The notes beneath the pieces are model-generated. The model was not told the origin of the DNA and made no database searches. It saw nothing but the letters and a program-made list of their open reading frames with translations. From NCBI GenBank assembly GCA_965197645.1, contig OZ240219.1, positions 2,208,001 through 2,272,000 of the forward strand: a stretch of DNA of 64,000 bases, read 5' to 3'. Source of the stretch: Dehalococcoidia bacterium (GTDB lineage: Bacteria; Chloroflexota; Dehalococcoidia; Plut-88900). Positions 35,929-55,968 of the stretch are shown here, one piece after another (positions within the stretch are counted from its first letter, which is position 1; the number at the start of each line of letters is the position of its first letter). The translations under genes were made by a program, and so were the position numbers.

Positions 35929-37356
35929 ATGGCTATGAACGAATTGAACACCCTAACCGCCCGAGAAGCCGTCGAGCTGTTGAAGACGCGGAAGGTATCA
36001 TCCGAGGAGCTGATCGATGCCGCCGTCCAGCGCATCGAGGAGACCGATGGCGACCTCAATGCCCTGCCTACTCTGTGCATCGATAGGGCGAAGAACAACG
36101 CCGGCGAGCTGGCCCGGAACACACCTTCGGACCCTCCGCCGGGCTACCTGTACGGATTGCCCATAGCCGTCAAGGACCTCTCCAACGTGGCTGGCGTCCG
36201 CAGTACCATGGGCTCGCCCCTGTTCGCAGACAACGTGCCCGACGCCTCCAGCTACGTCGTGGAGATGCTGGAGGCCAGCGGCGGCATCGTGCTGGCCAAA
36301 TCCAACACTCCCGAGTTCGGCGCCGGCGCCAACACCTTCAACGAGGTGTTTGGCAAGACGGTCAATCCCTGGGACACCCGCATGACCTGCGGCGGGTCGT
36401 CGGGCGGTTCGGCGGTGGCCCTGGCAACGGGGCAAGTGTGGCTGGCCACGGGGAGCGATCTCGGGGGCAGCCTGCGAATCCCGGCCAGCTTCTGCTCCGT
36501 AATCGGCTTGCGGCCCAGTCCCGGACGGGTGCCGCAGGGCCCGCGAGAGTTCCCTTTCGGGACCATGTCCGTCGAGGGGCCCATGGGCAGAAACGTGGGC
36601 GATGCTGCGCTCATGCTGGATGCGGAATCGGGCCTTCACTCCCGGGACCCCATCAGCTATCCATCTCCCTCGACTCCCTATGTCGAAGCCGTCGATAACC
36701 CGGTACGACCGGCGAAAGTCGCCTTCACACCCAACCTGGGTGTCGCTCCCGTGGAGCCGGAGGTTGTCGATGTCTGCACTCAAGCCGTTCAGCTGTTCGA
36801 GGCCATCGGCGCTGAGGTGGAAGAGGACACCATCGATATGCACGATGCCAGCCCGACCTTTCAGACCCTCCGTGCGGCCGGGTTCGCCGCGGGGATGAAG
36901 TCGTTGCTCGAGAACCGGAGCGACCAGCTCAAACCGGAGATCATCTGGAACATCGAGAAGGGGCTGGCCCTCTCGACGGAGGAGGTCGCCGACTCCGAGC
37001 GGGCCCGGGGCGCACTCTTTCAGCGGACCGCGGATTTTTTCGACCGCTACGACCTGCTGTTGACCCCGGCCGTCGCCGTACCACCCTTTGACGTCGACAT
37101 CCGCTACGTAACCGAAATCGACGGCGTCCAGATGGACAACTACATCGACTGGGCCCTGTTGACTTCCGCTCTTACCCTTACCGCCTGCCCCGCCATATCG
37201 GTCCCATGCGGATTTACCGAGGCCGGGCTGCCAGTCGGGCTTCAGATAATGGCTCCACATAGGGAAGAGGCCCGGCTGCTCTCTGCCGCAGCGCTGTTCG
37301 AGGAGGCTACGGGTCTGGCAGATCTGGTACCCCTGGATCCCAGGGTGAGCGCATAG
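35929..37356 (+). CDS. amidase signature family protein
   Basis: GLPIAVKD, GGSSGGS, GSDLGGSLR. Confidence 0.92.
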   Translation: MAMNELNTLTAREAVELLKTRKVSSEELIDAAVQRIEETDGDLNALPTLCIDRAKNNAGELARNTPSDPPPGYLYGLPIAVKDLSNVAGVRSTMGSPLFADNVPDASSYVVEMLEASGGIVLAKSNTPEFGAGANTFNEVFGKTVNPWDTRMTCGGSSGGSAVALATGQVWLATGSDLGGSLRIPASFCSVIGLRPSPGRVPQGPREFPFGTMSVEGPMGRNVGDAALMLDAESGLHSRDPISYPSPSTPYVEAVDNPVRPAKVAFTPNLGVAPVEPEVVDVCTQAVQLFEAIGAEVEEDTIDMHDASPTFQTLRAAGFAAGMKSLLENRSDQLKPEIIWNIEKGLALSTEEVADSERARGALFQRTADFFDRYDLLLTPAVAVPPFDVDIRYVTEIDGVQMDNYIDWALLTSALTLTACPAISVPCGFTEAGLPVGLQIMAPHREEARLLSAAALFEEATGLADLVPLDPRVSA

Positions 37357-37492: not shown

Positions 37493-38881
37493 ATGGACGA
37501 TATTACGACCACCTCCGCCGCGAAGTTGGCTCAGGCTATCAGCGACAAGAGGGTCTCGGCTACCGAGGTCGTACAGGCGCACATCGACCGGATAAAGGAG
37601 GTCAATCCCAAGCTGAATGCCGTCGTTAAACTCGTTGAGGAGAGGGCCATTTCCGAGGCGAGAGAGGCCGACGAGGCTCTGGCAAAGGGCGAAAGCGTGG
37701 GGCCTCTTCACGGGGTGCCCATTACCATCAAGGACTCCCTGAATACCGAGGGCATAGTCTCCACCGGAGGCACCAAGGGCCGGTCTTCCTTCGTCCCGGA
37801 TCGGGACGCCACAGCGGTAGCCAGGCTGCGGGCCGCAGGAGCTATTCTCATGGGCAAGACCAACACCCCCGAGCTGACCCTGGACGGAGAGACGGACAAT
37901 CTGATCTACGGACGGACCAACAACCCGTATGACCTGGCTCGTAGTCCGGGCGGCAGCAGTGGCGGCGCCGCCGCCATCGTCTCGGCGGCGGGCTCCCCGC
38001 TGGATATCGGTAGCGATACCGGCGGCAGCATCAGGGGCCCGGCCCACGACTGTGGAATCGCAGGCATCAAACCGACGTCGGGCAGGGTCCCGAGGACCGG
38101 CCACATCGTTCCGTATGGCATGGGCGCACAGGACGCCCTCACCCAGCTGGGCCCCATGGCCCGCTACGTCGAGGACCTGACCCTCGCCCTTGGCATAATC
38201 GCCGGGCCGGACATGGAGGACCCAGCCATAGTGCCGGCTCCGCTGGGAGATCCGGCATTAGTAGACATAAAGACCCTTAAGATCGCCACGCACTCCAACA
38301 ACGGGCTGGTCGATCCCACGCCAGAGACCACCGAGGCTGTAAGCCGGGCAGCTGCAGCCTTGTCCGAGGCGGGAGTGTCGGTGACGGAAGACGTGCCCGA
38401 GGCCCTAAAACGGAGCACGGACCTCTACGACCGGCTGGAGAGCATCGATGGCCGGACCTGGGTACGGCGCATGCTGAAGAAGGCCGGCACCACCGAGGTG
38501 GGAGACTTGCTGACTAAAATGTTGGCCGAGGCAAAGATGGGCTCCTCTGAGCAGTTCTCCAAGCTGTTGGAGGAGCTAGACGAGTATCGAAGTCTGATGC
38601 TCCAGTTCATGGCCAACTACGATGCCCTGCTCGTTCCCTCCATCTCTCACCCGGCCGTGCTGCACGGTGAAAGCCACAACGAGGAGTACAGCGACTACAG
38701 CCACACCAGCGCCTACAACCTCACCGGCTGGCCGGGTGCAGTGGTGCGGGGAGGCACGTCGCCGGAGGGCATGCCGATAGGCGTCCAGGTTGTGGCCAGG
38801 CCTTGGCGCGAGGACGTGGCCCTAGCCCTCGCCCAGCATCTCGAGACGGCTCTTGGAGGCTGGCAGCCTCCCCCGCTATGA
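37493..38881 (+). CDS. amidase signature family protein
   Basis: GVPITIKD, GGSSGG, GSDTGGSIR. Confidence 0.92.
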   Translation: MDDITTTSAAKLAQAISDKRVSATEVVQAHIDRIKEVNPKLNAVVKLVEERAISEAREADEALAKGESVGPLHGVPITIKDSLNTEGIVSTGGTKGRSSFVPDRDATAVARLRAAGAILMGKTNTPELTLDGETDNLIYGRTNNPYDLARSPGGSSGGAAAIVSAAGSPLDIGSDTGGSIRGPAHDCGIAGIKPTSGRVPRTGHIVPYGMGAQDALTQLGPMARYVEDLTLALGIIAGPDMEDPAIVPAPLGDPALVDIKTLKIATHSNNGLVDPTPETTEAVSRAAAALSEAGVSVTEDVPEALKRSTDLYDRLESIDGRTWVRRMLKKAGTTEVGDLLTKMLAEAKMGSSEQFSKLLEELDEYRSLMLQFMANYDALLVPSISHPAVLHGESHNEEYSDYSHTSAYNLTGWPGAVVRGGTSPEGMPIGVQVVARPWREDVALALAQHLETALGGWQPPPL

Positions 38882-40778: not shown

Positions 40779-41031
40779 CCGGCCTGCGGCAATCGGCAAT
40801 GGCAGTCTGTAGCTAACATAAGTCGTTGGTTTGCCTTTTCGTCCGCAACCGTCGAGGACACGCCTGTTCCGAGCGGAGTCCGAGCGTCTAAGGGTGGGTT
40901 GCCGATGAAGCTCCAATACGTTACGCCTGTGGTAGACTTCACCAGAGTCAGCTCTACCAGGCCAAGAAGCTGTACAGAGCCATACGTTCGGCTTCAGCCC
41001 ATGCCTGTAGCAATCGGGAGCAGTGATCATC

Positions 41032-41664
41032 ATGGATGAAAAACCGCCCGAGTTTAGAAACATCTACACGGCGAAGGACAGCGAAGAACTGGCGGATATA
41101 TACTCAGAGATGGCCGACCACTACGATAGCTCTCTCCAGACCGGTTGGGGATGGACCATACCCGACTTCACCGCTGACGTTTTCGCCAGATACGTCGACC
41201 ACGGTTCCTGGATCCTGGACGCAGGAGCCGGCACCGGACTGGCAGGCGAGGCTCTCGTCAAGCGGGGCTACCGCAACATCATCGGCATCGACCTTACCGA
41301 GGCGATGCTGGCCCAAGCCCGAGCCAAGGACGTTTATCGTAAGCTGCACCTGATGGAGCTGGGAGAGCCTCTGGCGTTCCCGGTGGACCGTTTCGATGCG
41401 GTGATATCAGTGGGTGTGATGACCATGGGCCACGCCCCACCCAGGTCCCTCGATGAGCTGGTCAGGATCACTAAACCCGGCGGACACATCGTTTATACCC
41501 TGCGCCCCGATTGGTACCTGCTGGGCGGCTTCCGAGAAAAGCACATCGTGCTGGAGGCCGGCGGACAATGGGAGTTTCTAGAGCGTACCGAACCCTTCGT
41601 AACCAGGCCCCAGGAGGGACCCGACGTCGTCTTCGAGGTCTGGGTATTTCAGGTGCTGGACTAG
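41032..41664 (+). CDS. class I SAM-dependent methyltransferase
   Basis: ILDAGAGTG, GIDL, KPGG. Confidence 0.88.
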   Translation: MDEKPPEFRNIYTAKDSEELADIYSEMADHYDSSLQTGWGWTIPDFTADVFARYVDHGSWILDAGAGTGLAGEALVKRGYRNIIGIDLTEAMLAQARAKDVYRKLHLMELGEPLAFPVDRFDAVISVGVMTMGHAPPRSLDELVRITKPGGHIVYTLRPDWYLLGGFREKHIVLEAGGQWEFLERTEPFVTRPQEGPDVVFEVWVFQVLD

Positions 41665-41668
41665 GCAT

Positions 41669-42316
41669 ATGCAAGAGACCCGTCAGTCCAAACGAGCCAA
41701 GAAGCGGTACAGGTCCAATGCTCCCCGCTATGATAGCTACATGTCCGGCGCGCAAGATTTGCGCGTGTCGACCGTCGAGCGATTGGCCCTGAGTCCCGGA
41801 GACACGGTGCTGGACCTTGGTTGCGGCACCGGTCTGAGCTTTCAGTTTCTGCAGGATGCGGTAACATCCGAAGGGCGGATCATCGGTGTGGACGTCAGCT
41901 CGGACATGCTCAGCCAGGCACAAGCTAGAATCGAAGACCACGGATGGCGCAACGTCACCCTCATCGAAGGAAACGCCAGCACCATCGAGGTCCCGGGACC
42001 GGTGGATGGCGTACTCTGCTACTTCACCCATGACATCATGAACTCCAGGCCCGCCGTTGAGCGCGCTCTGTCGACGCTCAAGGATGGCGGCAGGTACGTG
42101 GCTGTCGGAATCAAAAAGGTGAAGGGCCTGCGGGGGATACCCAAGAACATTAGGGCCTATATGAACTCGGGCCGATTCATCACAACCAAGGTCTTCGCCA
42201 CCCTGTTCTGGGGGACCGCCGTGCCCTGGGCAAATCTGGATGAGCTGATGGGACCCCTGGAGTTCGAGGAGATCCGAGGCGGCACCGACTACATCGCTTG
42301 TGCAGTAAAGCATTAG
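41669..42316 (+). CDS. class I SAM-dependent methyltransferase
   Basis: VLDLGCGTG, GVDVS..ML, LKDGG. Confidence 0.88.
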   Translation: MQETRQSKRAKKRYRSNAPRYDSYMSGAQDLRVSTVERLALSPGDTVLDLGCGTGLSFQFLQDAVTSEGRIIGVDVSSDMLSQAQARIEDHGWRNVTLIEGNASTIEVPGPVDGVLCYFTHDIMNSRPAVERALSTLKDGGRYVAVGIKKVKGLRGIPKNIRAYMNSGRFITTKVFATLFWGTAVPWANLDELMGPLEFEEIRGGTDYIACAVKH

Positions 42317-42389: not shown

Positions 42390-43550
42390 ATGAAGAACGG
42401 CTTCAAGGTGCTGGACAGCGATATACACGTTACCGAGCCCGATACTCTGTGGGCCGACTACATGGAGGCCGACTTCAAGGACAGCGCTCCGGTCAGAGTG
42501 GTTGACGAAGGCTCTTGGTCGGCAGGCATGTGGAGATCGGATGGAAAGCTTCTGCCGGCCTACATGGACGTAGCGGAACGCAGCAGGACCATGCGGGTGC
42601 GGGAGGAGATCTCCGCGGAGCGGTACGTCCAGTCCGGTCGGCAATTGGTCAGTGGCGCCGAGTCCGATCAGGATGAGGGGACCCGTCCCGAGCACATGCT
42701 GGAGGCCATGGGGGTGGAGGGGGTAGACGTAGCGGTGGTCTTCCGTACCATGGGCGCCCACGTCATCGGGATCGACGAGATGGACCCCAACCTTTCAGCC
42801 GCCATCTGTCGGGGCTACAACGACTGGCTCTACGATTTCTGCGCCGCGCAGCCATCCGCTCTGAAGGTAGGCGCCCTCATGCCGATGCAGGACGTGGACC
42901 TGGCTGTCCACGAGGCCAACAGGGCCGTTGACAAGCTGGGGGCGGTCACCTTGATACTGCCCAGCAATCCGGTTTGCGAGCGGCCCTGGTACTCGGAATA
43001 CTACCACCCCTTCTGGGCCGCAGCTGAGAGCCTGGGAGTCCCCGTCTCCTTTCACGGCATCCAGATGGCCTATCAGGACCATCTGGCCCGAAGGTACATG
43101 GACAATCACGTCCTTGGACACTCGGTGGCGCACCCGGTCGAGATGATCTGCACCGCCGGCGCCATGGTGAGCGGAGGCATATTCGAGCGGTTCCCCACCC
43201 TCAAGACCGCCTTCCTGGAGGGCCACTCCAGCTGGGTCCCCTGGTGGCTCTACTGCCTGGACGAGCACGAGGAGAAGATGGGCGACAAGGAGCGGTTCGG
43301 GCTGGTCCTCTCACCCAGTGAGTACTTTCTGCGCCAGTGCTTCGTCTCGGTAGACCCTGACGAGGCCCTCGTCAAGTACACCATCGATGCCATCGGCGAC
43401 GACAACCTGGTCATCTCCACCGACTGGCCCCACGACGACTCCGCCTATCCCAACGCCATCGATACCTTCCTGGGCTTGGAGGGAGTATCACAGGCCAGCC
43501 AGCAGAAGGTGCTCTGGGACAACTGCGCCAGGCTTTACGATATCGACTAG
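42390..43550 (+). CDS. amidohydrolase 2 family protein
   Basis: DSDIH..EP, YNDWL, FHG, LEG...W, STDWPH. Confidence 0.88.
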   Translation: MKNGFKVLDSDIHVTEPDTLWADYMEADFKDSAPVRVVDEGSWSAGMWRSDGKLLPAYMDVAERSRTMRVREEISAERYVQSGRQLVSGAESDQDEGTRPEHMLEAMGVEGVDVAVVFRTMGAHVIGIDEMDPNLSAAICRGYNDWLYDFCAAQPSALKVGALMPMQDVDLAVHEANRAVDKLGAVTLILPSNPVCERPWYSEYYHPFWAAAESLGVPVSFHGIQMAYQDHLARRYMDNHVLGHSVAHPVEMICTAGAMVSGGIFERFPTLKTAFLEGHSSWVPWWLYCLDEHEEKMGDKERFGLVLSPSEYFLRQCFVSVDPDEALVKYTIDAIGDDNLVISTDWPHDDSAYPNAIDTFLGLEGVSQASQQKVLWDNCARLYDID

Positions 43551-43576: not shown

Positions 43577-45241
43577 TTACGCCCGGTCTTTGATGAGGGC
43601 GGTCACGGGCCCACCGGCGTCTCCGTACATCACCATGCTCTTGCCCGCCGGGCCGCCCACCACGACCACGTCGTAGAAGCTGGAGTTCTCTACGACGCGT
43701 AGATAGACATCCTCCAGCTCCGAGTCGGACCTTTCCAACAGCCACCGCCACTCGGGACGGAACACCTCTGGGGTCTTGCGGCCCCAGCTCAATGCCAGTC
43801 GAGCGTTGACCTTCGAGTAATGGTGGACGTACTCCCGGACCGATCGCTTGGTCCAGCCGGCCTGCCCGCAGATGTTGGCGTGCTCAGGACACATGGCCAA
43901 GAGAAGCCGGTCGGTGGCCTCTTCGACGTCGAAGTAGTTGATCACGTACCTGGCGGCGTGGTTGGAGCAGGTAACGGCGAAGCTGTCGAGCACCCTTTCC
44001 GGCTCCCAGTTGGTCAGGTCGTCCACGTCCTCCTCGCCCAGGGTGTCGAAGAGAGTGACGGTGCTCTGGTCGTTATCGTATCCCCGGTCCACGTGATATC
44101 CGTTCCAGGGACTTTCCTCATCGTTTTCTGCGAAGCAGAGGCTGAACTTCCTGGACGAACCGATGGTGTCCATGTCCATCCGGCCCGGATAGGCGTTGCC
44201 GACGTTCATCAGTACCAGCCGGAACGCTCTGCCCAGGACCACGTTGTGGCGGGAAGGGGCGCCAGGGCCCATGGCGCACCGGCCCGAGTTCATGCCGATC
44301 TCCCTGGCTATGGGACCGTTCACCATCATCAACGGTGCGTTGGCGCTGGTAGACATCGTCAGCGCTCTGGCCGGCGTGCCGAACCGGGGTAGTGCTTCAC
44401 AGGCCGCCATCAGCACCGGCAGGTGGATGGGCTCGCAGCCCGCCATCACGGCGTTGATGGCTATCTTCTCGACCGTGGCGTATCTCATGCCTGGCGGCAG
44501 AATCGAGACCACGTCCTGGGGGTCCCTGGTAGTGCCTCCCAGCATCGCGTTCACCTTCTCGGGGGTGGGCGGAATGATGGGAAAACCGTCGCCCCACTCC
44601 TTCTCGATGAAGAGCCTGTTCAGGGACTCGAAGGCATCGTACCTGTCTTCTCCATGAACGGTCAGAGACTCGGCGGCATGCGCATCGGCGATGGCAGCGC
44701 CATTGGCCCCGTTGATATCGGTTGTCAGGACCTCGACTATCTGGTCGAAGGAGTTGGTCACGTGTTCCTCGATGCGCTCGGGACTGAGGCCGGTCAGCAC
44801 CTCGGGGACCAGGGCATAGCGGAACTGGGGGAACCCGAAGGCCCGGGCGCTGACCATAGCGTCCCGCGCAAAACCCTCGGAGACGATGCTGACGGTGGGC
44901 TTGCCGGCCTTCTCCACCTGGACCATGTCGTGGACAAGCCACGACGTGCAGGAGCCTCAGTCCCCGGTTGAGCCGACGATCACGTCGCTCTCGGCTATGG
45001 CCTGCTTGAGAAGGTCCTCCCGACAGGGCTGGCTGCCTTCGTACCGTCGCACTGTGACGCCGCTATACCGATTGGAGATCAGCTCCCCCGCTTTGTCCAG
45101 GGCCTCCAGACCTCCTCGCTTGGCGTTCCACACAAGCCCGACGTTCAGCCCGTCCAGAGAGTTGGGCCGATGCGCCGGATGGCTGATCTCGTGGTCTCCC
45201 TGGGCGTCCGCCACCGGATGCAGTATCTCCATGGTATACAT
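43577..45241 (-). CDS. UGSC-family selenoprotein fused to a large unknown domain (Sec at TGA 44959-44957)
   Basis: ORFs 44957-45262 and 43577-44926 share a frame; read-through gives GSTGD-U-GSCTSWLVHDMVQVEKAGKPT. GGGGGA RBS before ATG 45241; no RBS before ATG 44926. Confidence 0.85.
44927..44945 (-). promoter_or_regulatory. candidate bacterial SECIS hairpin
   Basis: GUCGUGG-CUUGU-CCACGAC: perfect 7-bp stem starting 11 nt after the UGA. Confidence 0.6.
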
Positions 45242-45444
45242 GATTCCCCCTCCCCGATTCATGAGAAAGTTACGAGAAGTGTAGCGAAATGCACCCGGCA
45301 GGGCAACGACGAGCCCGCCAGGCCCCTTGGGCGAGAGCCGCGTCGGTGGAACACACCCGTGGGGATATCCACGCGTCTATCGATGCCTTCTAGGAGTCGC
45401 TCGAAGGGGTGCGACGGAGAGGCCGGCCGTTGTGGGGAAGGAGC

Positions 45445-46200
45445 TTAGGGAACGTCCATCTTGCGCAGCCGCCGCACCGACAGAAGGAAGAACACCAACG
45501 TGACCGCTATGGCGCCTGCCATCGCTGCGGGGAACTCGATCACACGGCTTTCCAGGCTTCCGAAGTTGACGTCGTCTATGCCGTGCATGATCCCTAGGAC
45601 GTAGCCCCGAACGCTCAGGTATCTAACTCCCCCTAGGAAGCTGCTTATCAGCCCTTCCCATAGGAAGACATAGACCAGTCCGAAAGCCAGTGCGCGGGTG
45701 GTGACCAGGCCCGTCCACGTGAAGATGGCAGCATAGGTGACGACGCCGGCCAGCAGGGCCACGCCGACCGCCAATACGGCCCTGACACCGTTGTCCAGCT
45801 CCAACAGGGCCACTCCCAGCGCGCTGGTGCCTATAATCATTGTCGCTATGCCGCTGGCCACTAGAATCGGTCCGGATATCGAGATGGGCGCCAGCAGTTT
45901 TGGCAGTACGATGCGCGATCGGGCCACCGGCTTCAACACCAGGTAGCTCAAGGTCCGGTCCTCCAATTCGTTGCCGAAGGTTGCCGACGCCAGCACCATG
46001 GTCACTATGGGCAGTATCCCCCCGATCAACAGGCCATCGAGCATACTGTTGGTGAAGTCCCTGTTAGACGGATCGTCTTGGCCCACTGTGAAGGAGATCA
46101 GGGCGGCCAGGCCTACAGGGACCAGGGCCAGAAGGGATATAAGCAGAAGCCGTCGTCCACTTGCCAGCTGGCGCAGGGAGAGGCGGAACGTCGGTCCCAT
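45445..46200 (-). CDS. ABC-2 type transporter permease
   Basis: About 6 TM segments; E.EDRTL.YL..KP. Confidence 0.85.
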   Translation of the reverse strand: MGPTFRLSLRQLASGRRLLLISLLALVPVGLAALISFTVGQDDPSNRDFTNSMLDGLLIGGILPIVTMVLASATFGNELEDRTLSYLVLKPVARSRIVLPKLLAPISISGPILVASGIATMIIGTSALGVALLELDNGVRAVLAVGVALLAGVVTYAAIFTWTGLVTTRALAFGLVYVFLWEGLISSFLGGVRYLSVRGYVLGIMHGIDDVNFGSLESRVIEFPAAMAGAIAVTLVFFLLSVRRLRKMDVP

Positions 46201-47145
46201 CTATCCTTCCACCAGGTAGCTGAACACGCTCTCCAACGATTCGTCCAGCGGCTCTACCCGCATCAGGCGTATCCCCATCTCTTTCGCCAGTTTGGGAATC
46301 GACCTCTGCAGGACCAGGATCTTGCGACTCAGGACCATAATCGACTCATCGGAGCCCACCGCAACCGAGTCCACGTCAGGCAGTTTGACCACAGCCGCCG
46401 CCATAGACCTGGGGTCATCGGTGACTATGCGCACCTTGTACGGTTGTTGGTCCAGCTTGGATCGGATGGCGTGGTAGTCTCCCGCCGCGGCCAGCTTGCC
46501 GGTAACCATCAGCAGAATGCTGTCGGCCAGGGTCTCTATCTCCTCCAAGATGTGGGAAGAGATCAGTATGGTCCGCCCTTCGTTGCCCAGTTGGCGCATC
46601 AGGTCCTGAAACTCGATGCGCTGGCGAGGGTCCGTGCCGTTTAGGGGTTCGTCCAGAATCAGGACTTCGGGATCGTGGACCAGGGTCGCGGCCAGCCGTA
46701 TCCGCTGCCGCATGCCTCGTGAGTAGGTTGAAATAGGCCTGTTCTGAGCGTCCTGAAGCCCCACTATTTTGATCGCCCGATCCACCGCCGGCGACAGAGG
46801 GTCAAGACCGTAAAGCCGGCCTGTGTGCGCTACAAACTCCCGGCCCGTGAAGAACTCGTAGGCCGCCTCGTGCTCCGACATTACGCCTACTCGCCGGTAC
46901 AGGTCCGGGTTGTCCCGCACAGGCTCTCCCAGCACCTTCACCTCTCCCTCCGATGGGTGGGCCAGACCCGTGATCACGTGTAGAAGGGTGGTCTTTCCCG
47001 CGCCGTTGGGGCCCAGCAGTCCCGTAACGCCCGGCCCCACCCGGGCCGACACGCTGTTGACGGCAACCACGTTGCCAAACCACTTCGAGACGCCCTGAAT
47101 GTCAATGGTCGGTTCGGTACGGATGGTCATTTCGGGGGACGTCAA
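46201..47145 (-). CDS. ABC transporter ATP-binding protein
   Basis: GPNGAGKT, YSRGMRQR, LDEP, SSH; probable TTG start at 47145 (AGGAGG RBS) overlapping the upstream stop. Confidence 0.88.
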   Translation of the reverse strand: MTSPEMTIRTEPTIDIQGVSKWFGNVVAVNSVSARVGPGVTGLLGPNGAGKTTLLHVITGLAHPSEGEVKVLGEPVRDNPDLYRRVGVMSEHEAAYEFFTGREFVAHTGRLYGLDPLSPAVDRAIKIVGLQDAQNRPISTYSRGMRQRIRLAATLVHDPEVLILDEPLNGTDPRQRIEFQDLMRQLGNEGRTILISSHILEEIETLADSILLMVTGKLAAAGDYHAIRSKLDQQPYKVRIVTDDPRSMAAAVVKLPDVDSVAVGSDESIMVLSRKILVLQRSIPKLAKEMGIRLMRVEPLDESLESVFSYLVEG

Positions 47146-48077
47146 GCCAGAATCCTCCTGTAGCGCCACCACAGCACCAGGGCGGGGCCGACGGTGAGCA
47201 GGGCGTACCACCCGATCCGGATGCCGGCGTTCAACTCTCTACCGAGCGTTACCGTGGGCGGCTCGTTGCTCTCTTCGAAGATCAGGCTGTTGACCTGAGC
47301 CGGGACCTGGGCAAGGTCTATCAACGCGAACCACTTGGAGAACTCGCCAGCCGGCCCTTCACACTCCACCGTGGTCCCGGCTGAGGTGGTACGTTCAATT
47401 TCGACGCAATCCGTGAACGCTCCGGCGATCGGGACCGAAATGATGAACAGCGCTATGACGAAGGCGGCGGCATATGCCCTGCGAGTGGTGAAAGCGGACA
47501 CCGCCAGCGGTACCGTGGTAATGAAGGCGGTCACCAGAACTCCAGCCCCCAGAAAGCGGGGGATGTCCAGCCAGTTGTCTTGAAAATGCTGCAGCGGGTC
47601 TTCGGCGGCCAGGACCAGGCCGACCAGCAACACTATCTGGCCTATGTACACCAGCGCCAGGACGGCGCAGAAGAAGGCCAGCCACCTGCTGGCGACGTAA
47701 TCGGTGATAGTGAGCGGCCGCACGAGGTACAGGTTGATCACCCGGTCCCTTCTATCGGCGCACAACAGCTCGGGCGCTATGATCGCGGCGAACAGGATCA
47801 GCACCACCGATACCATGTTGTAGTATCCAGCGTGCCCCAGCAGGTCCTGTTCATCCGTACCGGCCAGAGACGCGATGATGCTCAAGACTACGGCTGGAGT
47901 TATAACTGCGATGAGCAGAAGTACCGGCATGACCTTGGAGGGCCATCCCCGGCCCAGACCCAGGGCCATGCGAATGCCGCTTATCCAGATAGCCTTCCGG
48001 GCCTCCATGCGGCCCGCCCGCGGCCCCGAGTAGCTCTGGTACCCGAGGTCGAATACCTCTCCCTGGTAATCGTTCAT
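47142..48077 (-). CDS. ABC-2 type transporter permease
   Basis: Multiple TM segments; DRRD..I.LY.VRP. Confidence 0.85.
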   Translation of the reverse strand: MNDYQGEVFDLGYQSYSGPRAGRMEARKAIWISGIRMALGLGRGWPSKVMPVLLLIAVITPAVVLSIIASLAGTDEQDLLGHAGYYNMVSVVLILFAAIIAPELLCADRRDRVINLYLVRPLTITDYVASRWLAFFCAVLALVYIGQIVLLVGLVLAAEDPLQHFQDNWLDIPRFLGAGVLVTAFITTVPLAVSAFTTRRAYAAAFVIALFIISVPIAGAFTDCVEIERTTSAGTTVECEGPAGEFSKWFALIDLAQVPAQVNSLIFEESNEPPTVTLGRELNAGIRIGWYALLTVGPALVLWWRYRRILA

Positions 48078-48976
48078 GGGGTGGTCTTCCGGAAGATGTC
48101 CGTCAGCACGTGACGGCCGGGGGCCATCCTGCGCAGTGGCGCGTCTGCTTCTACCAATGCGTCTCGAATCGCATCGTACTGTTCGCCCTCTTCCCAGGTC
48201 ACCATCAGCGATGACCCTTCCAAGGTCGCTTCGATGCCCCGTTTAGCCAGCTCTTCCACCAGCTTGTCCCGGTTCTCGGTGACGTCTATGAAAAGGGTCT
48301 GCGTCTCCTGGGTAAAGCCGGAGACCGCCCCCTCCTCCATGACGTGGCCCCCCTCCAAGACTACGATCCGTTCGCAGACGCTCTCGACGTCTCCCATCAG
48401 ATGAGATGAGAGAAGGATGCTGATCCCGAAATCTCTGCCGATCCGGTAAATCAACGCCAGCATCTCCTCTCGTCCTCCGGGATCGAGGCCGGCGGTCGGT
48501 TCGTCCAGCAGTACCAGGACGGGATCGTGGACCAGGGCTTGGGCTAGCTTGACCCGTTGCTTCATGCCGGTGGAGTACTCGCCGATAGAACGATAGCGCT
48601 CTTCGGCGAGGCCCACGTGCCGCAGGATGTCGGCCGCTCGAGTTCGTGCATTTTTGGCCGGCAGCCCGCTCACCTGGGCCATGTGGGTGAGGAACTCTGA
48701 GGATGTCACCGACGTGGGCAGGCAGTCGTGCTCCGGCATGTAGCCCAGCCTCTCCCTGCTCTCCACCAGCTCGTAGGGCTTTTGTCCCATCACTTCGACC
48801 GAGCCGGCCGTCGGCTCCAGCAGTCCCAGGAAGAGTTTGATCGCCGTGCTCTTGCCCGCCCCGTTGGGGCCCAGCAGGCCCGTGGTCCCATCATCGACCT
48901 GAAAATCTACCGATTCCAGGGCGATGGTGGCGCCGTAGCGTTTGGTCAACTCTTTTGCTTGCAGTAGAGGCGGCAT
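48074..48976 (-). CDS. ABC transporter ATP-binding protein
   Basis: GPNGAGKS, YSTGMKQR, LDEPTAGLD, SSH; start uncertain (48976-49000). Confidence 0.88.
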   Translation of the reverse strand: MPPLLQAKELTKRYGATIALESVDFQVDDGTTGLLGPNGAGKSTAIKLFLGLLEPTAGSVEVMGQKPYELVESRERLGYMPEHDCLPTSVTSSEFLTHMAQVSGLPAKNARTRAADILRHVGLAEERYRSIGEYSTGMKQRVKLAQALVHDPVLVLLDEPTAGLDPGGREEMLALIYRIGRDFGISILLSSHLMGDVESVCERIVVLEGGHVMEEGAVSGFTQETQTLFIDVTENRDKLVEELAKRGIEATLEGSSLMVTWEEGEQYDAIRDALVEADAPLRRMAPGRHVLTDIFRKTTP

Positions 48977-49050
48977 CGTCCGAGTATCCACTCCCTTCAC
49001 TGAGCTATGCGTACTATAACACCTGAGAGGCCGGAACTGGATGGGAAGCT

Positions 49051-50854: not shown

Positions 50855-50896
50855 CCTTTACCTCTCAGGGGCATGCCTTTACCTCTCTGGCGCCGG
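50855..50896. repeat. 21-bp imperfect tandem duplication spanning a stop codon and RBS-like sequence
   Basis: cctttacctctcaggggcatg / cctttacctctctggcgccgg. Confidence 0.6.
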
Positions 50897-52474
50897 TTCG
50901 TATTTTCTCCCCAGCTCCTCCTCCCACCTCAGGTAGTTGATCGCTTCCGCGAAGTTGCGCTCCGATCCGAAGGCGACCATATCGTCCGGAGGGCTCATAA
51001 CACCTGTTAGCCCCTTCTCGACAGATAGCCCTTCCCCGAGCCACCGTTTCATTCCCCCATTCATGACCATAACGTTGCTATACCCCAGCTCCTTGAGGGT
51101 TGCTGCAGCCAGCACTGAGTTTCTTCCATCGCTGCAGGTGACCACCAACTCCGATGACTTGTCGACGCCCAGGTCGCCGATCCACAGCTCCAACCACCCC
51201 CGGGGCATCCACCTGGCCCCGGCCACGTGTCCCTCCGCGTACTCCTGGCTGGTGCCCACGAACAGTACGCTGGGCGGGCTGGACGATAGGAGCCTGTCCT
51301 GCAGTTCGTGAGCGTCGATGCTCTTTACTTTGTCCATCTCCTCATCCAGCCCGAACGGTTCATGCGGTGCCATTCCAGACTGCAACTGAAGTCCTGCGTC
51401 TCTCCAGGCGGATGTCCCACCCTCCACGCAGTAGACCTTCGGGTATCCCATCTGCCGGAACCAGGATGCCGTAACGAAGGACCTGATGCTGCCGTCACAG
51501 CAGAACACGATGTTACCGTTCTTCACCGCTACCACGTCGTCGCTCTGCTGAACAGCCTGCCCACCCGGGTACCAGCGGAAGCCGGGAACGTAGCCATCGC
51601 GGAACTCTTCCACGGTGCGAACGTCGATAAGATAGACCGTCTCGTTGTTGCTCCTGCTCATCAAGTCCTGGAGCGCGTCTATGCCCAGGACCTGTACACC
51701 GTCCTCTGCCGCCGCCTTTCGGGCAAAGGCCTCCGCCTTGGATCTGGCTCCTTCGGAGACCTTGGGAGCTTCCGTGCGCTGCGATCCAACCTCCAGGTCC
51801 AATCCCGCCAGCGACCATCCCATCGTTCCGTTGCGGAGCCCCCTGGCGTTCTTGAACCCCATCCTCTGCAGCAGCCCGGTACCGATGATGCTGCGAGTCC
51901 TGCCTGCGCAGTGCACCACAACTGGCGTTTCGAGATCGTCTACGAGGTCCCAGATGTGCAATGCCAGCTCACCTCCCGGTAGGCTTCGGCTGCCCGGTAT
52001 GCAGTAGCTGGTGTGCTCCTGGGGCGTTCGGGTGTCGACGACCACCTCAACCTCGGCATTGGAGATTCTCTGCTCCAGCTCCTCGGCGTCGATCTCGGGA
52101 ACGCTGCGCTCCACCTGTATCCGCTCCCCGAAATCCTTGCTCAGGACGTTGGTGCCCCACTCGGTGGGGTACCCTTCGTAGGCCCAGCGATTTGCCCCGC
52201 CCGCCAGCACCGAGACACGGCCGTATCCCATCACTTCCAGCGTAGCGGCCGCCAGGTCTGCCCTGCGCCCGTCGTCATCGCATACCACCAGGTGCACACC
52301 CTTGTAGGGCGCCAGCTCCTCCGCTCGAAACTCCAGCAACCGGCGCGGCAGGGAGCTGAAACCGGGAATATGCGAGGTGTTGTACTCCCCGTACTCCCGC
52401 ACGTCTATCAGACCGAGCTCGGCCTCGGACTGCATCAGGCCGTTGAGCTCGCCTGCTGTAATGGACGTAGGCAT
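50879..52474 (-). CDS. four-domain rhodanese/sulfurtransferase
   Basis: Four rhodanese repeats (DVRE..EY...HIPG; DTRT..E; DVRT.EEF; EY.EGHV.GA); active-site loop HCAGRTRS in domain 2. Confidence 0.9.
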   Translation of the reverse strand: MPTSITAGELNGLMQSEAELGLIDVREYGEYNTSHIPGFSSLPRRLLEFRAEELAPYKGVHLVVCDDDGRRADLAAATLEVMGYGRVSVLAGGANRWAYEGYPTEWGTNVLSKDFGERIQVERSVPEIDAEELEQRISNAEVEVVVDTRTPQEHTSYCIPGSRSLPGGELALHIWDLVDDLETPVVVHCAGRTRSIIGTGLLQRMGFKNARGLRNGTMGWSLAGLDLEVGSQRTEAPKVSEGARSKAEAFARKAAAEDGVQVLGIDALQDLMSRSNNETVYLIDVRTVEEFRDGYVPGFRWYPGGQAVQQSDDVVAVKNGNIVFCCDGSIRSFVTASWFRQMGYPKVYCVEGGTSAWRDAGLQLQSGMAPHEPFGLDEEMDKVKSIDAHELQDRLLSSSPPSVLFVGTSQEYAEGHVAGARWMPRGWLELWIGDLGVDKSSELVVTCSDGRNSVLAAATLKELGYSNVMVMNGGMKRWLGEGLSVEKGLTGVMSPPDDMVAFGSERNFAEAINYLRWEEELGRKYEPAPER

Positions 52475-54570: not shown

Positions 54571-55968
54571 TCAGTCCAACTGCGGGGGCTGCCAACCGCC
54601 CAGCTCCGACTCGATGTGCTTGGCGACAGCCAACGCGATATGATCACTCCACGGTTTGGCCCCAACCTGTACCCCGATGGGCAGTCCCTCCGGCGAGGTC
54701 CCTCCGCGCACCACGGCGCCGGGCCATCCGGTGAGGTTGTAGTACAGCACGTAGCTGAACCCTCGCAGCGAGTCCGGCTCCAGGCCCGTCCAATGGGGTG
54801 CGGCCGGTTCGGCGCCCACGGGGCTGATAATCACGTCGTAGTCGGCCATGTATCTCGTCATGCTGCGACGAAACTCATCCCACTGGGCCACGGTTGCGAC
54901 GACCTCCGCCGGAGACTCCGTTGCCGGGGATATCGTTTCCATCCAACGCTCGATCAGCGGATGAATACGTTTGGTACCGGCCGCTGCCAGCGTGGCTTTG
55001 GCGCCGGCCGCGCCCTCTATCCGCCACAGTCGGCGGGACAGTTCAAATGTGGTCGAGATGCATTCCGGGAGCGACTCCTCAACTCGAGCGCCAGCATCCT
55101 CCAGGCATCGGGCCGCTGCTTTCACCGCCTCTACAGTCTCCGCCGTCGGAGACTGGATGCCATTGTCCGTGTGGTACGAGACCCTGAGGGAACTTACATC
55201 AACCTCGGAGGGGTCTCCGAGAGGGCCGGGTATGATGGCCGGGTCCCTATCGTCGGGCCCGGCGATGATGGGCAGAGTCAGTATCAGGTCTTCTACGTAG
55301 CGGGCCATCGGGCCTACCTGAAACTTGAAGTCCAGGATGCCGCCTGCCGGACCGAAGTGGCCCGTTCGAGGTACACACCCGGAGGTCGGTTTGATACCGG
55401 CGATGCCGCAGTTGTGGGCCGGCTGCCGTATGCTGCCGCCGGAGTCGCTGCCGATGCCGAAGGGCGATCCCCCCGCCGCGATGATGGCCGCCTCTCCGCC
55501 GCTGCTGCCACCCGGCCCCCGTTCCAGATCGTAAGGGTTATTGCACCTTCCATAGACCAGGTTATCGCTCTCCCACAGCATGCTCAACTCGGGCAGGTTG
55601 GTCTTGCCCAGCATTATTCCCCCGGCGGCCTTCAATCGCTTTACCACCGTGGCATCCTCGGATGGCACGAAGGACGAGCGCCCCTCCGTGCCACCGGTCG
55701 AAACGACTCCGGCCGTCTCCAAGGCGTCCTTGATGGTCATCGGGACTCCGTGCAGAGGTCCCGTAGTCCGGCCTTTCGCCAGCTCCTCGTCTGCCTCCCG
55801 CGCCTGGGCCATGGCCTCGTCGCCGGTCACCACGACCACCGCGTTAATCTGGGGATTGACCTCCTGGATCCTGTCCAAGTGGGCCTGCACCACCTCCGTG
55901 GACGAGACTTTCTTATCTCGGATCGCCTGGGCGATACTGACGGCTGAGGAATGTAAGAGGTCTTTCAT
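54571..55968 (-). CDS. amidase signature family protein
   Basis: GVPMTIKD, GGSSGG, GSDSGGSIR. Confidence 0.92.
   Translation of the reverse strand: MKDLLHSSAVSIAQAIRDKKVSSTEVVQAHLDRIQEVNPQINAVVVVTGDEAMAQAREADEELAKGRTTGPLHGVPMTIKDALETAGVVSTGGTEGRSSFVPSEDATVVKRLKAAGGIMLGKTNLPELSMLWESDNLVYGRCNNPYDLERGPGGSSGGEAAIIAAGGSPFGIGSDSGGSIRQPAHNCGIAGIKPTSGCVPRTGHFGPAGGILDFKFQVGPMARYVEDLILTLPIIAGPDDRDPAIIPGPLGDPSEVDVSSLRVSYHTDNGIQSPTAETVEAVKAAARCLEDAGARVEESLPECISTTFELSRRLWRIEGAAGAKATLAAAGTKRIHPLIERWMETISPATESPAEVVATVAQWDEFRRSMTRYMADYDVIISPVGAEPAAPHWTGLEPDSLRGFSYVLYYNLTGWPGAVVRGGTSPEGLPIGVQVGAKPWSDHIALAVAKHIESELGGWQPPQLD

Follow-up and report, generated by a model that had tools for sequence, protein, structure and literature searches.

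Two minus-strand open reading frames (ORFs), 45262..44957 (101 aa) and 44926..43577 (449 aa), share one frame in the stretch of DNA analysed here (64,000 nt of contig OZ240219.1 from a Dehalococcoidia bacterium, called the window throughout) and are separated solely by the TGA codon 44959-44957. The locus raises the question whether this codon ends a short gene or encodes selenocysteine (Sec), and what a Sec module of the UGSC family would do in front of a large domain. An earlier note on this DNA had read through the TGA into a 554-aa chain carrying GD-U-GSC-TS and had proposed a Sec module serving a catalytic partner in a two-part redox system. We find that the TGA encodes selenocysteine, that the locus is one genuine selenoprotein gene, and that this gene is a new Dehalococcoidia-class member of the published UGSC/Unknown_1 fusion family.

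A single gene read across a selenocysteine codon

The two frames lie exactly where the earlier note had placed them, and translation of 45241..43577 with TGA read as U yields the 554 residues it had described, with U95 as the single recoded codon and no stop otherwise. The context of U95 is STGD-U-GSC-TSW, so that the U/C-G-S-C motif of the UGSC family is present, and the motifs quoted in the note from the C-terminal part (WGDGFPIIPPT, EKIAINAVMAGC, CFAENDEESPW and MCPEHA) are all found in the translation. Since a Shine-Dalgarno-like GGGGAGGGGG run (45255-45246) lies 4 nt 5' of ATG 45241 and a 77%-identical orthologue begins at the same MYTME residues as the product of this codon, ATG 45241 is preferred as the start over ATG 45262. 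The nearest named relative comes from a Dehalococcoidia metagenome-assembled genome (MAG) and is 77% identical. The gene comprises the following features, among them a hairpin of the selenocysteine insertion sequence (SECIS) type:

43577..45241, minus strand: whole gene, UGSC::Unknown_1 selenoprotein of 554 aa (ATG 45241-45239, stop TAA 43579-43577, TGA=U translation)
45246..45255, minus strand: Shine-Dalgarno-like run GGGGAGGGGG, read from the sequence
44723..45229, minus strand: UGSC domain, residues 5-173 (PF24696 match; flavodoxin-like alpha/beta fold in the model)
44957..44959, minus strand: Sec codon TGA, U95 of U-G-S-C (sequence, translation, related loci)
44927..44945, minus strand: SECIS-type hairpin (arms 44945-44939 and 44933-44927, loop 44938-44934)
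44669..44722, minus strand: interdomain linker, residues 174-191, between the Pfam UGSC match and the conserved large domain (low model confidence)
43580..44668, minus strand: large partner domain 'Unknown_1', residues 192-554 (conserved columns; motifs of Fig. S1A, PMC2398784)

The hidden Markov model search that the earlier note had suggested for the read-through product gave one match to the Pfam UGSC family PF24696 that spans the TGA, covering residues 5-173 and model positions 1-171/172 with 130.9 bits (cut-off 25, E 7.1e-38). The machinery needed for Sec incorporation is encoded in the source genome, a single 3.21-Mb contig, where selB (346.8 bits), selA (547.7) and selD (379.7) all score over their curated cut-offs and a tRNA-Sec with anticodon tca was found at 66.4 bits (called tRNA-SeC by ARAGORN); the selD gene has an in-frame TGA of its own. 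The codon was followed through 74 related loci obtained from a scan with one genome per species (best 80 of 584 confirmed stretches), a survey of Cys against Sec versions such as the note had suggested. The aligned codon is TGA in 71 of the 74, with no further stop before the large domain, while the remaining three, from a Gracilibacteraceae MAG, Phytohabitans suffuscus and an Actinophytocola MAG, have the cysteine codon TGC. Rather than ending at this position with an independent start further on, the Cys forms (CGSC, CGGC, CGAC) and those with degenerate UGSC motifs run through as continuous chains of 549-582 aa. One fused homologue (L028, also L117; G058:C26:998-2656) contains an extra TAG inside the large domain (..TVQFV*GICELF..) besides its Sec TGA, and represents a broken copy unless the TAG stems from an error in the assembly.

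Further support comes from the perfect 7-bp stem with a 5-nt loop (GTCGTGG / CTTGT / CCACGAC, 44945-44927) that begins 11 nt past the TGA, where the earlier note had seen it, and whose 3' arm ends directly before ATG 44926. Pairing was counted in 72 aligned sequences, 66 of them distinct, with the 3' partner columns slid by 1-3 positions as a control: 90.7% of the cells are paired compared to 18-52% after sliding, and changes on both sides occur in 15 cells compared to 3.4 in shuffles. In the register of the window's hairpin, all seven pairs are formed in 58 of the 71 Sec loci; for the three Cys loci, which code for almost the same peptide, the numbers of pairs are 5, 5 and 6. A sub-type with a different peptide carries another stem (GCCCGC..GCGGGC) at the same location. 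With this hairpin and SelA, SelB, SelD and tRNA-Sec at hand, the UGA at 44959-44957 would be read as Sec under guidance of the stem 11 nt downstream.

A result in the opposite direction is that the single-sequence fold of 86 nt around the TGA is no better than shuffles (z +1.10), so the support for the hairpin is comparative and not energetic. The NCBIfam equivalog model NF041046 reaches 106.7 bits, under its cut-off of 125. As PF24696 passes, the protein is a member of the UGSC family and not of the equivalog type; it shares with PF24696 and NF041046 the U-G-S-C motif and a SECIS-like hairpin, and differs in the fusion of its UGSC to a domain of about 360 aa.

Taken as an ordinary stop, the TGA would leave two genes as gene callers annotate them, a 94-101-aa peptide and a separate 449-aa protein from ATG 44926, and although an ATG is present there, nearly all of the relatives' public gene calls (440-457 aa) begin right after the TGA and 114 of 267 aligned family members start just after the U position, this explanation is close to refuted: the single UGSC match crosses the TGA, so that each separate product would carry half a domain, ATG 44926 has no Shine-Dalgarno-like sequence before it and abuts the 3' arm of the hairpin, the Cys-form relatives are unbroken, the TGA is kept at the exact codon together with the conserved hairpin, and Sec machinery is encoded in the genome. 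The public calls for close relatives, nearly all 440-457 aa long with a partial UGSC hit, were truncated at the Sec codon and take the Met behind it as their start, and the locus illustrates how the UGSC fusion family is systematically truncated at this codon by gene callers. With the TGA decoded as Sec, translation of the whole C-terminal domain would plausibly depend on selenium.

The published fusion and its large partner domain

The UGSC/Unknown_1 fusion was first reported in 2008 by Zhang and Gladyshev in metagenome data of the Global Ocean Sampling (GOS) survey (PLoS Genet 4:e1000095, Fig. S1A; PMC2398784), and the available part of that paper describes the fused domain as conserved, of unknown function and with one conserved Cys. 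In both the published proteins and the window protein, an N-terminal UGSC with U-x-x-C is followed by a domain with A-x-N-x-V-M-A-G-C ... V-N-G-P. When the printed alignment was compared by eye, AINAVMAGCEPIHLP...MMVNGP of the window stood against AVNGVMAGCRPEYMP...VLNGS / TINGP of Fig. S1A, where the Cys is marked; this Cys of VMAGC is present in the window protein as C269. Because Fig. S1A carries the same motifs, the fusion was already known. The window copy is full-length and genomic, whereas the GOS sequences are read fragments, and the adjacency statistics, thioredoxin reductase-like fusions and paralogue expansions described below were not seen in the available part of PMC2398784.

Conserved positions of the large domain, in the numbering of the window protein, include D218, N263, C269 (codon 44437-44435), S297, T298, G309-P310, R338, C369 (codon 44137-44135), E372 and H454. 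The earlier note had been unable to assign this part of the chain, and our searches leave it so: residues ~192-554 gave nothing in Pfam or NCBIfam at E<=1, and ten relatives, several of them stand-alone, are also without a Pfam or NCBIfam model for it. Its sequence matched chains of the PDB with a best E of 1.2 and its profile A2 with a best E of 0.44. The AlphaFold2 model of the domain alone (predicted local distance difference test, pLDDT, 86.9; predicted template modelling score, pTM, 0.88) returned no hit at E<=1e-3 in a Foldseek search against the PDB, with TM about 0.2. Named clusters of the ESM Atlas held nothing usable; otherwise unnamed clusters were matched, along with one 'thioredoxin domain (fragment)' cluster and one in which 41% of the members bear UGSC. 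The folds of class I fumarate hydratase, cyclic amide hydrolase, MmgE/PrpD and serine dehydratase appeared in VIA-align rows below the noise guide and were discarded. The large domain is hence assignable to no family and has no clear relative among solved structures. A search of 1.84 billion representatives shows its own family to be large: 4649 clusters match at E<=1e-3, of which 2932 reach E<=1e-10 and 912 reach E<=1e-30.

Both fused and split versions, which the earlier note had wished to see surveyed, exist in the source genome itself, which encodes seven large-domain copies and four UGSC copies with one TGA each, one fused and three stand-alone (186-197 aa); the latter are only 27-29% identical to the fused one (tblastn). 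Each of the three stand-alone UGSC genes has a large-domain gene, likewise stand-alone, no further than about 1.5 kb away. One of these pairs is directly adjacent, one encloses an Amidohydro_2-like ORF, named by its N-terminal resemblance to the window gene and not by a Pfam scan, and one a short GRDB-family gene (PF07355, 46.2 bits; G000:C1:2775824-2776663, L022:2115-2954) with its own in-frame TGA (..VPA-U-PLDHQ..). This last locus thereby holds two Sec-containing genes and a partner-domain gene within about 3 kb.

Among 61 related genomes, 30 gave a match, with full-length one-TGA matches in several. One of them, G043, encodes at least 23 fused paralogues of full length, of which 22 contain a single TGA and one contains two; since 23 of 249 first-look candidates were scored, the true count may be much larger. 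The paralogues of this genome are often clustered on one contig (C9, C11, C72, C78, C97, C99, C101 and others). In two related loci (L031, L034) a stop codon splits the parts, which follow each other in the order of the fusion. UGSC occurs in 35 of 301 genomes sampled evenly from the phylum. Fifty-seven UGSC matches passed the cut-off, of which 53 have one TGA, two are full-length and stop-free and two are fragments missing the codon; by frame size, about 31 are stand-alone (176-305 aa), 23 are of fusion size (466-1049 aa) and three are short (61-110 aa). The large domain was found in the same 3.5-kb locus as UGSC in 28 of 32 loci and just outside in one more; in these 29 of 32 the two are either fused or no more than about 1.5 kb apart. 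Both this tally and that of the 301 genomes count two genomes with an unpublished flag (G097, G281), and the picture is the same once these are removed.

The large domain also occurs with other partners. In P0164, an AhpC/TSA-type thioredoxin fold takes the N-terminal place of UGSC; four of eight longer hits (among P0270-P0275) carry Pyr_redox_2 domains that are named thioredoxin reductase in one source, and one protein is fused to an AMP-binding domain. P0231 has a thioredoxin-like CxxC N-terminus whose Pfam match is sub-threshold only, and P0153 and P0157 are tandem large-domain pairs of 709-741 aa. Matches with one TAG (L041, L042; genus g4) were considered as pyrrolysine and rejected, as this TAG is the stop of an upstream same-frame tandem large-domain gene. 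The fusion or adjacency in 29 of 32 loci, the fusions of the partner to thioredoxin- and thioredoxin reductase-like domains and the predicted interface placement described below support the proposal of the earlier note that the Sec module serves the partner domain.

Modelled fold of the UGSC module and its predicted contact with the partner

That UGSC is a recognised selenoprotein family of unknown function, as the earlier note had stated, agrees with the available parts of PMC1976440 and of a 2026 review (PMC13188914), which places it among selenoproteins with largely uncharacterised functions; PMC9312934, as far as available, lists the family and assigns no function. Table 2 in the available part of PMC2398784 counts 255 Sec and 21 Cys UGSC sequences in the GOS survey, and the same part suggests a thioredoxin (Trx)-like fold for UGSC. 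The model obtained here looks flavodoxin-like instead: a VIA-align search with residues 27-179 matched flavodoxin/Rossmann-like chains at Z 9-11 (B12-binding domains, receiver domains and others), the Foldseek rows were also flavodoxin/Rossmann-like, and no thioredoxin-fold chain stood among the 50 best VIA-align rows, an absence that by itself does not disprove such a fold. The whole-model fold searches matched the UGSC domain only. UGSC thus models as a flavodoxin-like module. With Trx-like and peroxiredoxin (Prx)-like UxxC selenoproteins it has the UxxC motif and presumed selenenyl-sulfide chemistry in common; it differs from them in these model neighbours and in that the 554-aa protein has no thioredoxin-family Pfam match.

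Glycine reductase is a two-part enzyme in which a Sec module acts with a larger partner, an arrangement like that of UGSC and its partner domain. Its selenoprotein B (GrdB, of glycine/sarcosine/betaine reductase) has GrdE as partner. The GrdB copies of related genomes read ..VILTxT-U-GTxTRxGATxxKExERAGLPT.., to be set beside ..VIVGSTGD-U-GSCTSWLVHDMVxxEKAGKPT.. of the window; in both, Sec lies in a strand-loop-helix followed by E-[KR]-x-G-x-P-T. Alignment of 77 UGSC with 13 GrdB sequences (effective number of sequences, Neff, 2.1) in hhalign gave a probability of 87.9 (E 3.3e-6) across 94 columns, in which Sec is aligned with Sec, and 71.8 with Sec masked, the GrdB alignment being a shallow one of 13 sequences. 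Controls ranged from 0.1 to 4.8, with 0.2 for reversed GrdB, 4.8 for GrdE and 0.8 for the large domain. We regard this as a moderate signal of likeness between the Sec modules of UGSC and GrdB. There are also differences: the window protein lacks the N-terminal ~350 residues of GrdB, its partner domain is unrelated to GrdE, and UGSC has UxxC where the GrdB copies examined have U-G-T-x-T-R-[CS].

For the whole chain, the AlphaFold2 model has a pLDDT of 90.1 and a pTM of 0.90, falling below pLDDT 50 at linker residues 179-184; the pTM suggests a fixed arrangement of the two modules. For complex prediction, a Cys-form relative (P0126) was split into two halves given as separate chains, which scored 0.86 compared to 0.00 for the best of three controls; 51 of 78 solved complexes attain this mark, as do 2 of 108 mismatched pairs. 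Between the runs, >=97% of the contacts agree, and the partner pLDDT is >=90. On the UGSC side the predicted interface is formed by C94, G95, S96, T98, S99 and W100, which is the U-G-S-C loop, and on the side of the large domain by N264, M267, P251-T257 and R293-T299, positions that belong to its most conserved ones. Contact itself is expected since these are halves of one natural chain, so that the informative part is the location of the Sec loop, by which Sec may lie at the domain interface. No like complex was found among the solved structures searched. The earlier note had asked whether U/C reaches conserved Cys of the large domain: the loop sits in the predicted interface, and the conserved Cys residues are not named there.

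Proposed chemistry and genomic surroundings

A redox role of the fused protein can reasonably be inferred from its sequence, and we consider it fairly probable that the single 554-residue selenoprotein is a two-module thiol/selenol-driven reductase with an interface Sec loop and thioredoxin-type recycling. In such an enzyme, the U-G-S-C loop of UGSC would resemble the selenocysteine loop of GrdB, and the C-terminal Unknown_1 domain would be the catalytic or substrate-binding partner. The U95 selenol at the interface would act on a substrate bound by conserved large-domain residues, C98 would then resolve U95 to a selenenyl-sulfide, and re-reduction by a thioredoxin-type system would complete the cycle. 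The substrate may be small, probably an organic acid or a related catabolite.

Several observations weigh against this proposal. PF07355 (GRDB) is not listed for the 554-aa protein at E<=1, where it has to be considered that this model ends just before Sec and is blind to the Sec module. The large domain reached a best Z of 5.9 in VIA-align against 48,161 chains, with none at Z>=8, and its profile A2 aligned to 40 GrdE-like PF09338 sequences with an hhalign probability of 0.1 and to GrdB with 0.5; as it is without similarity to GrdE/PrdA or to a solved fold, the analogy to glycine reductase rests on the Sec module alone. C269 is replaced by Ser in L027 and by Ala in L029, both of which bear Sec, and among 267 family members a minority has another residue for C269 and likewise for C369; a strict Sec-to-Cys relay is not established, because the Cys residues of the large domain are common and not invariant. 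Neither of the two is named in the predicted interface. The complex prediction itself concerned the halves of a relative's natural chain and gives a model confidence, not a measurement. The neighbourhood, which the earlier note had suggested examining, was surveyed through 139 flanking ORFs in 25 loci, picked by eye from the 74 so as to be diverse: no neighbour keeps a fixed position across these 25 loci, and a thioredoxin reductase gene adjoins the fused gene neither in the window nor in any of them.

A closer kinship to glycine and D-proline reductase would make the protein a true functional analogue, in which Sec performs reductive C-N or C-X cleavage via a Se-C intermediate and the large domain either holds an electrophilic cofactor in covalent linkage or is the binding site of an amine or organic acid substrate. 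The alignment of the UGSC and GrdB modules with Sec on Sec points in this direction, as do the richness of the source genome in GrdB (three full-length) and GrdE-like (six) genes, the short GRDB-family selenoprotein gene inside a split UGSC/large-domain pair and, in L104, a Gly_reductase (PF09338) gene close to the fused one. However, the signal of homology is only moderate and the GrdB alignment shallow, the large domain aligns to GrdE/PrdA with the probability of 0.1 given above, a pyruvoyl-forming cleavage site is not indicated, and G043 and G045, the genomes with most fused paralogues, have no PF09338 match at E<=1e-10, so that we hold this explanation to be rather unlikely.

A general thiol/selenol antioxidant or disulfide-exchange system, peroxidase-like or acting as protein-disulfide reductase instead of as a substrate-specific catabolic reductase, appears improbable to us. 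It would agree with the UxxC redox motif, with the grouping of UGSC with Trx-like redox selenoproteins in the available parts of PMC2398784 and PMC13188914, and with the AhpC/TSA-type fusion of the partner domain in P0164, but the best matches of the UGSC model are flavodoxin/Rossmann-like, with no thioredoxin fold in the 50 rows listed, and the at least 23 fused paralogues in one related genome suit substrate diversification better than housekeeping defence. The neighbours are also catabolic rather than stress genes: of the 25 loci, four have MmgE/PrpD, three acyl-CoA dehydrogenases, two CoA-transferase III and three TctC receptors, and aconitase, enoyl-CoA hydratases and amidohydrolases add to a theme of organic-acid and acyl-CoA metabolism.

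Returning to the two-module reductase, the fused gene, its split neighbours and the thioredoxin and thioredoxin reductase fusions outline a definite two-part enzyme that is open to expression and assay. We only tentatively suggest that it represents a separate class of Sec-dependent reductases, in which a GrdB-like Sec module works with a novel-fold catalytic subunit and no pyruvoyl partner, with dozens of substrate-specific paralogues. If this holds true, the class would have radiated in Dehalococcoidia-class and other bacteria, where it would reductively break down organic acids or other dissolved organic matter. As the partner family comprises 4649 clusters and has neither a Pfam model nor a solved relative, a structure or an activity of one member would provide an annotation for genes by the thousands.

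In the window, the gene is flanked by ABC-2 transporter genes upstream and by one convergent gene:

42390..43550, plus strand: Amidohydro_2 gene, context only (PF04909, 101.8 bits)

This gene ends 26 nt from the stop codon of the selenoprotein gene, and an Amidohydro_2 gene also adjoins the 77% orthologue, in a different orientation; since these genomes hold many such genes, no functional link is claimed. The source genome is rich in selenoproteins, with its four TGA-containing UGSC genes, the selD gene with its in-frame TGA and three full-length GrdB frames ending at a TGA, for one of which (L126) the read-through was checked, and it has six PF09338 GrdE-like genes. Elsewhere in the window lie three amidase (PF01425) paralogues (35929-37356, 37493-38881 and 54571-55968), two adjacent S-adenosylmethionine (SAM)-methyltransferase genes (41023-41664 and 41669-42316), two ABC-2 transporter modules (45445-49000) and, at 50879-52474, a gene for a protein with four rhodanese domains.

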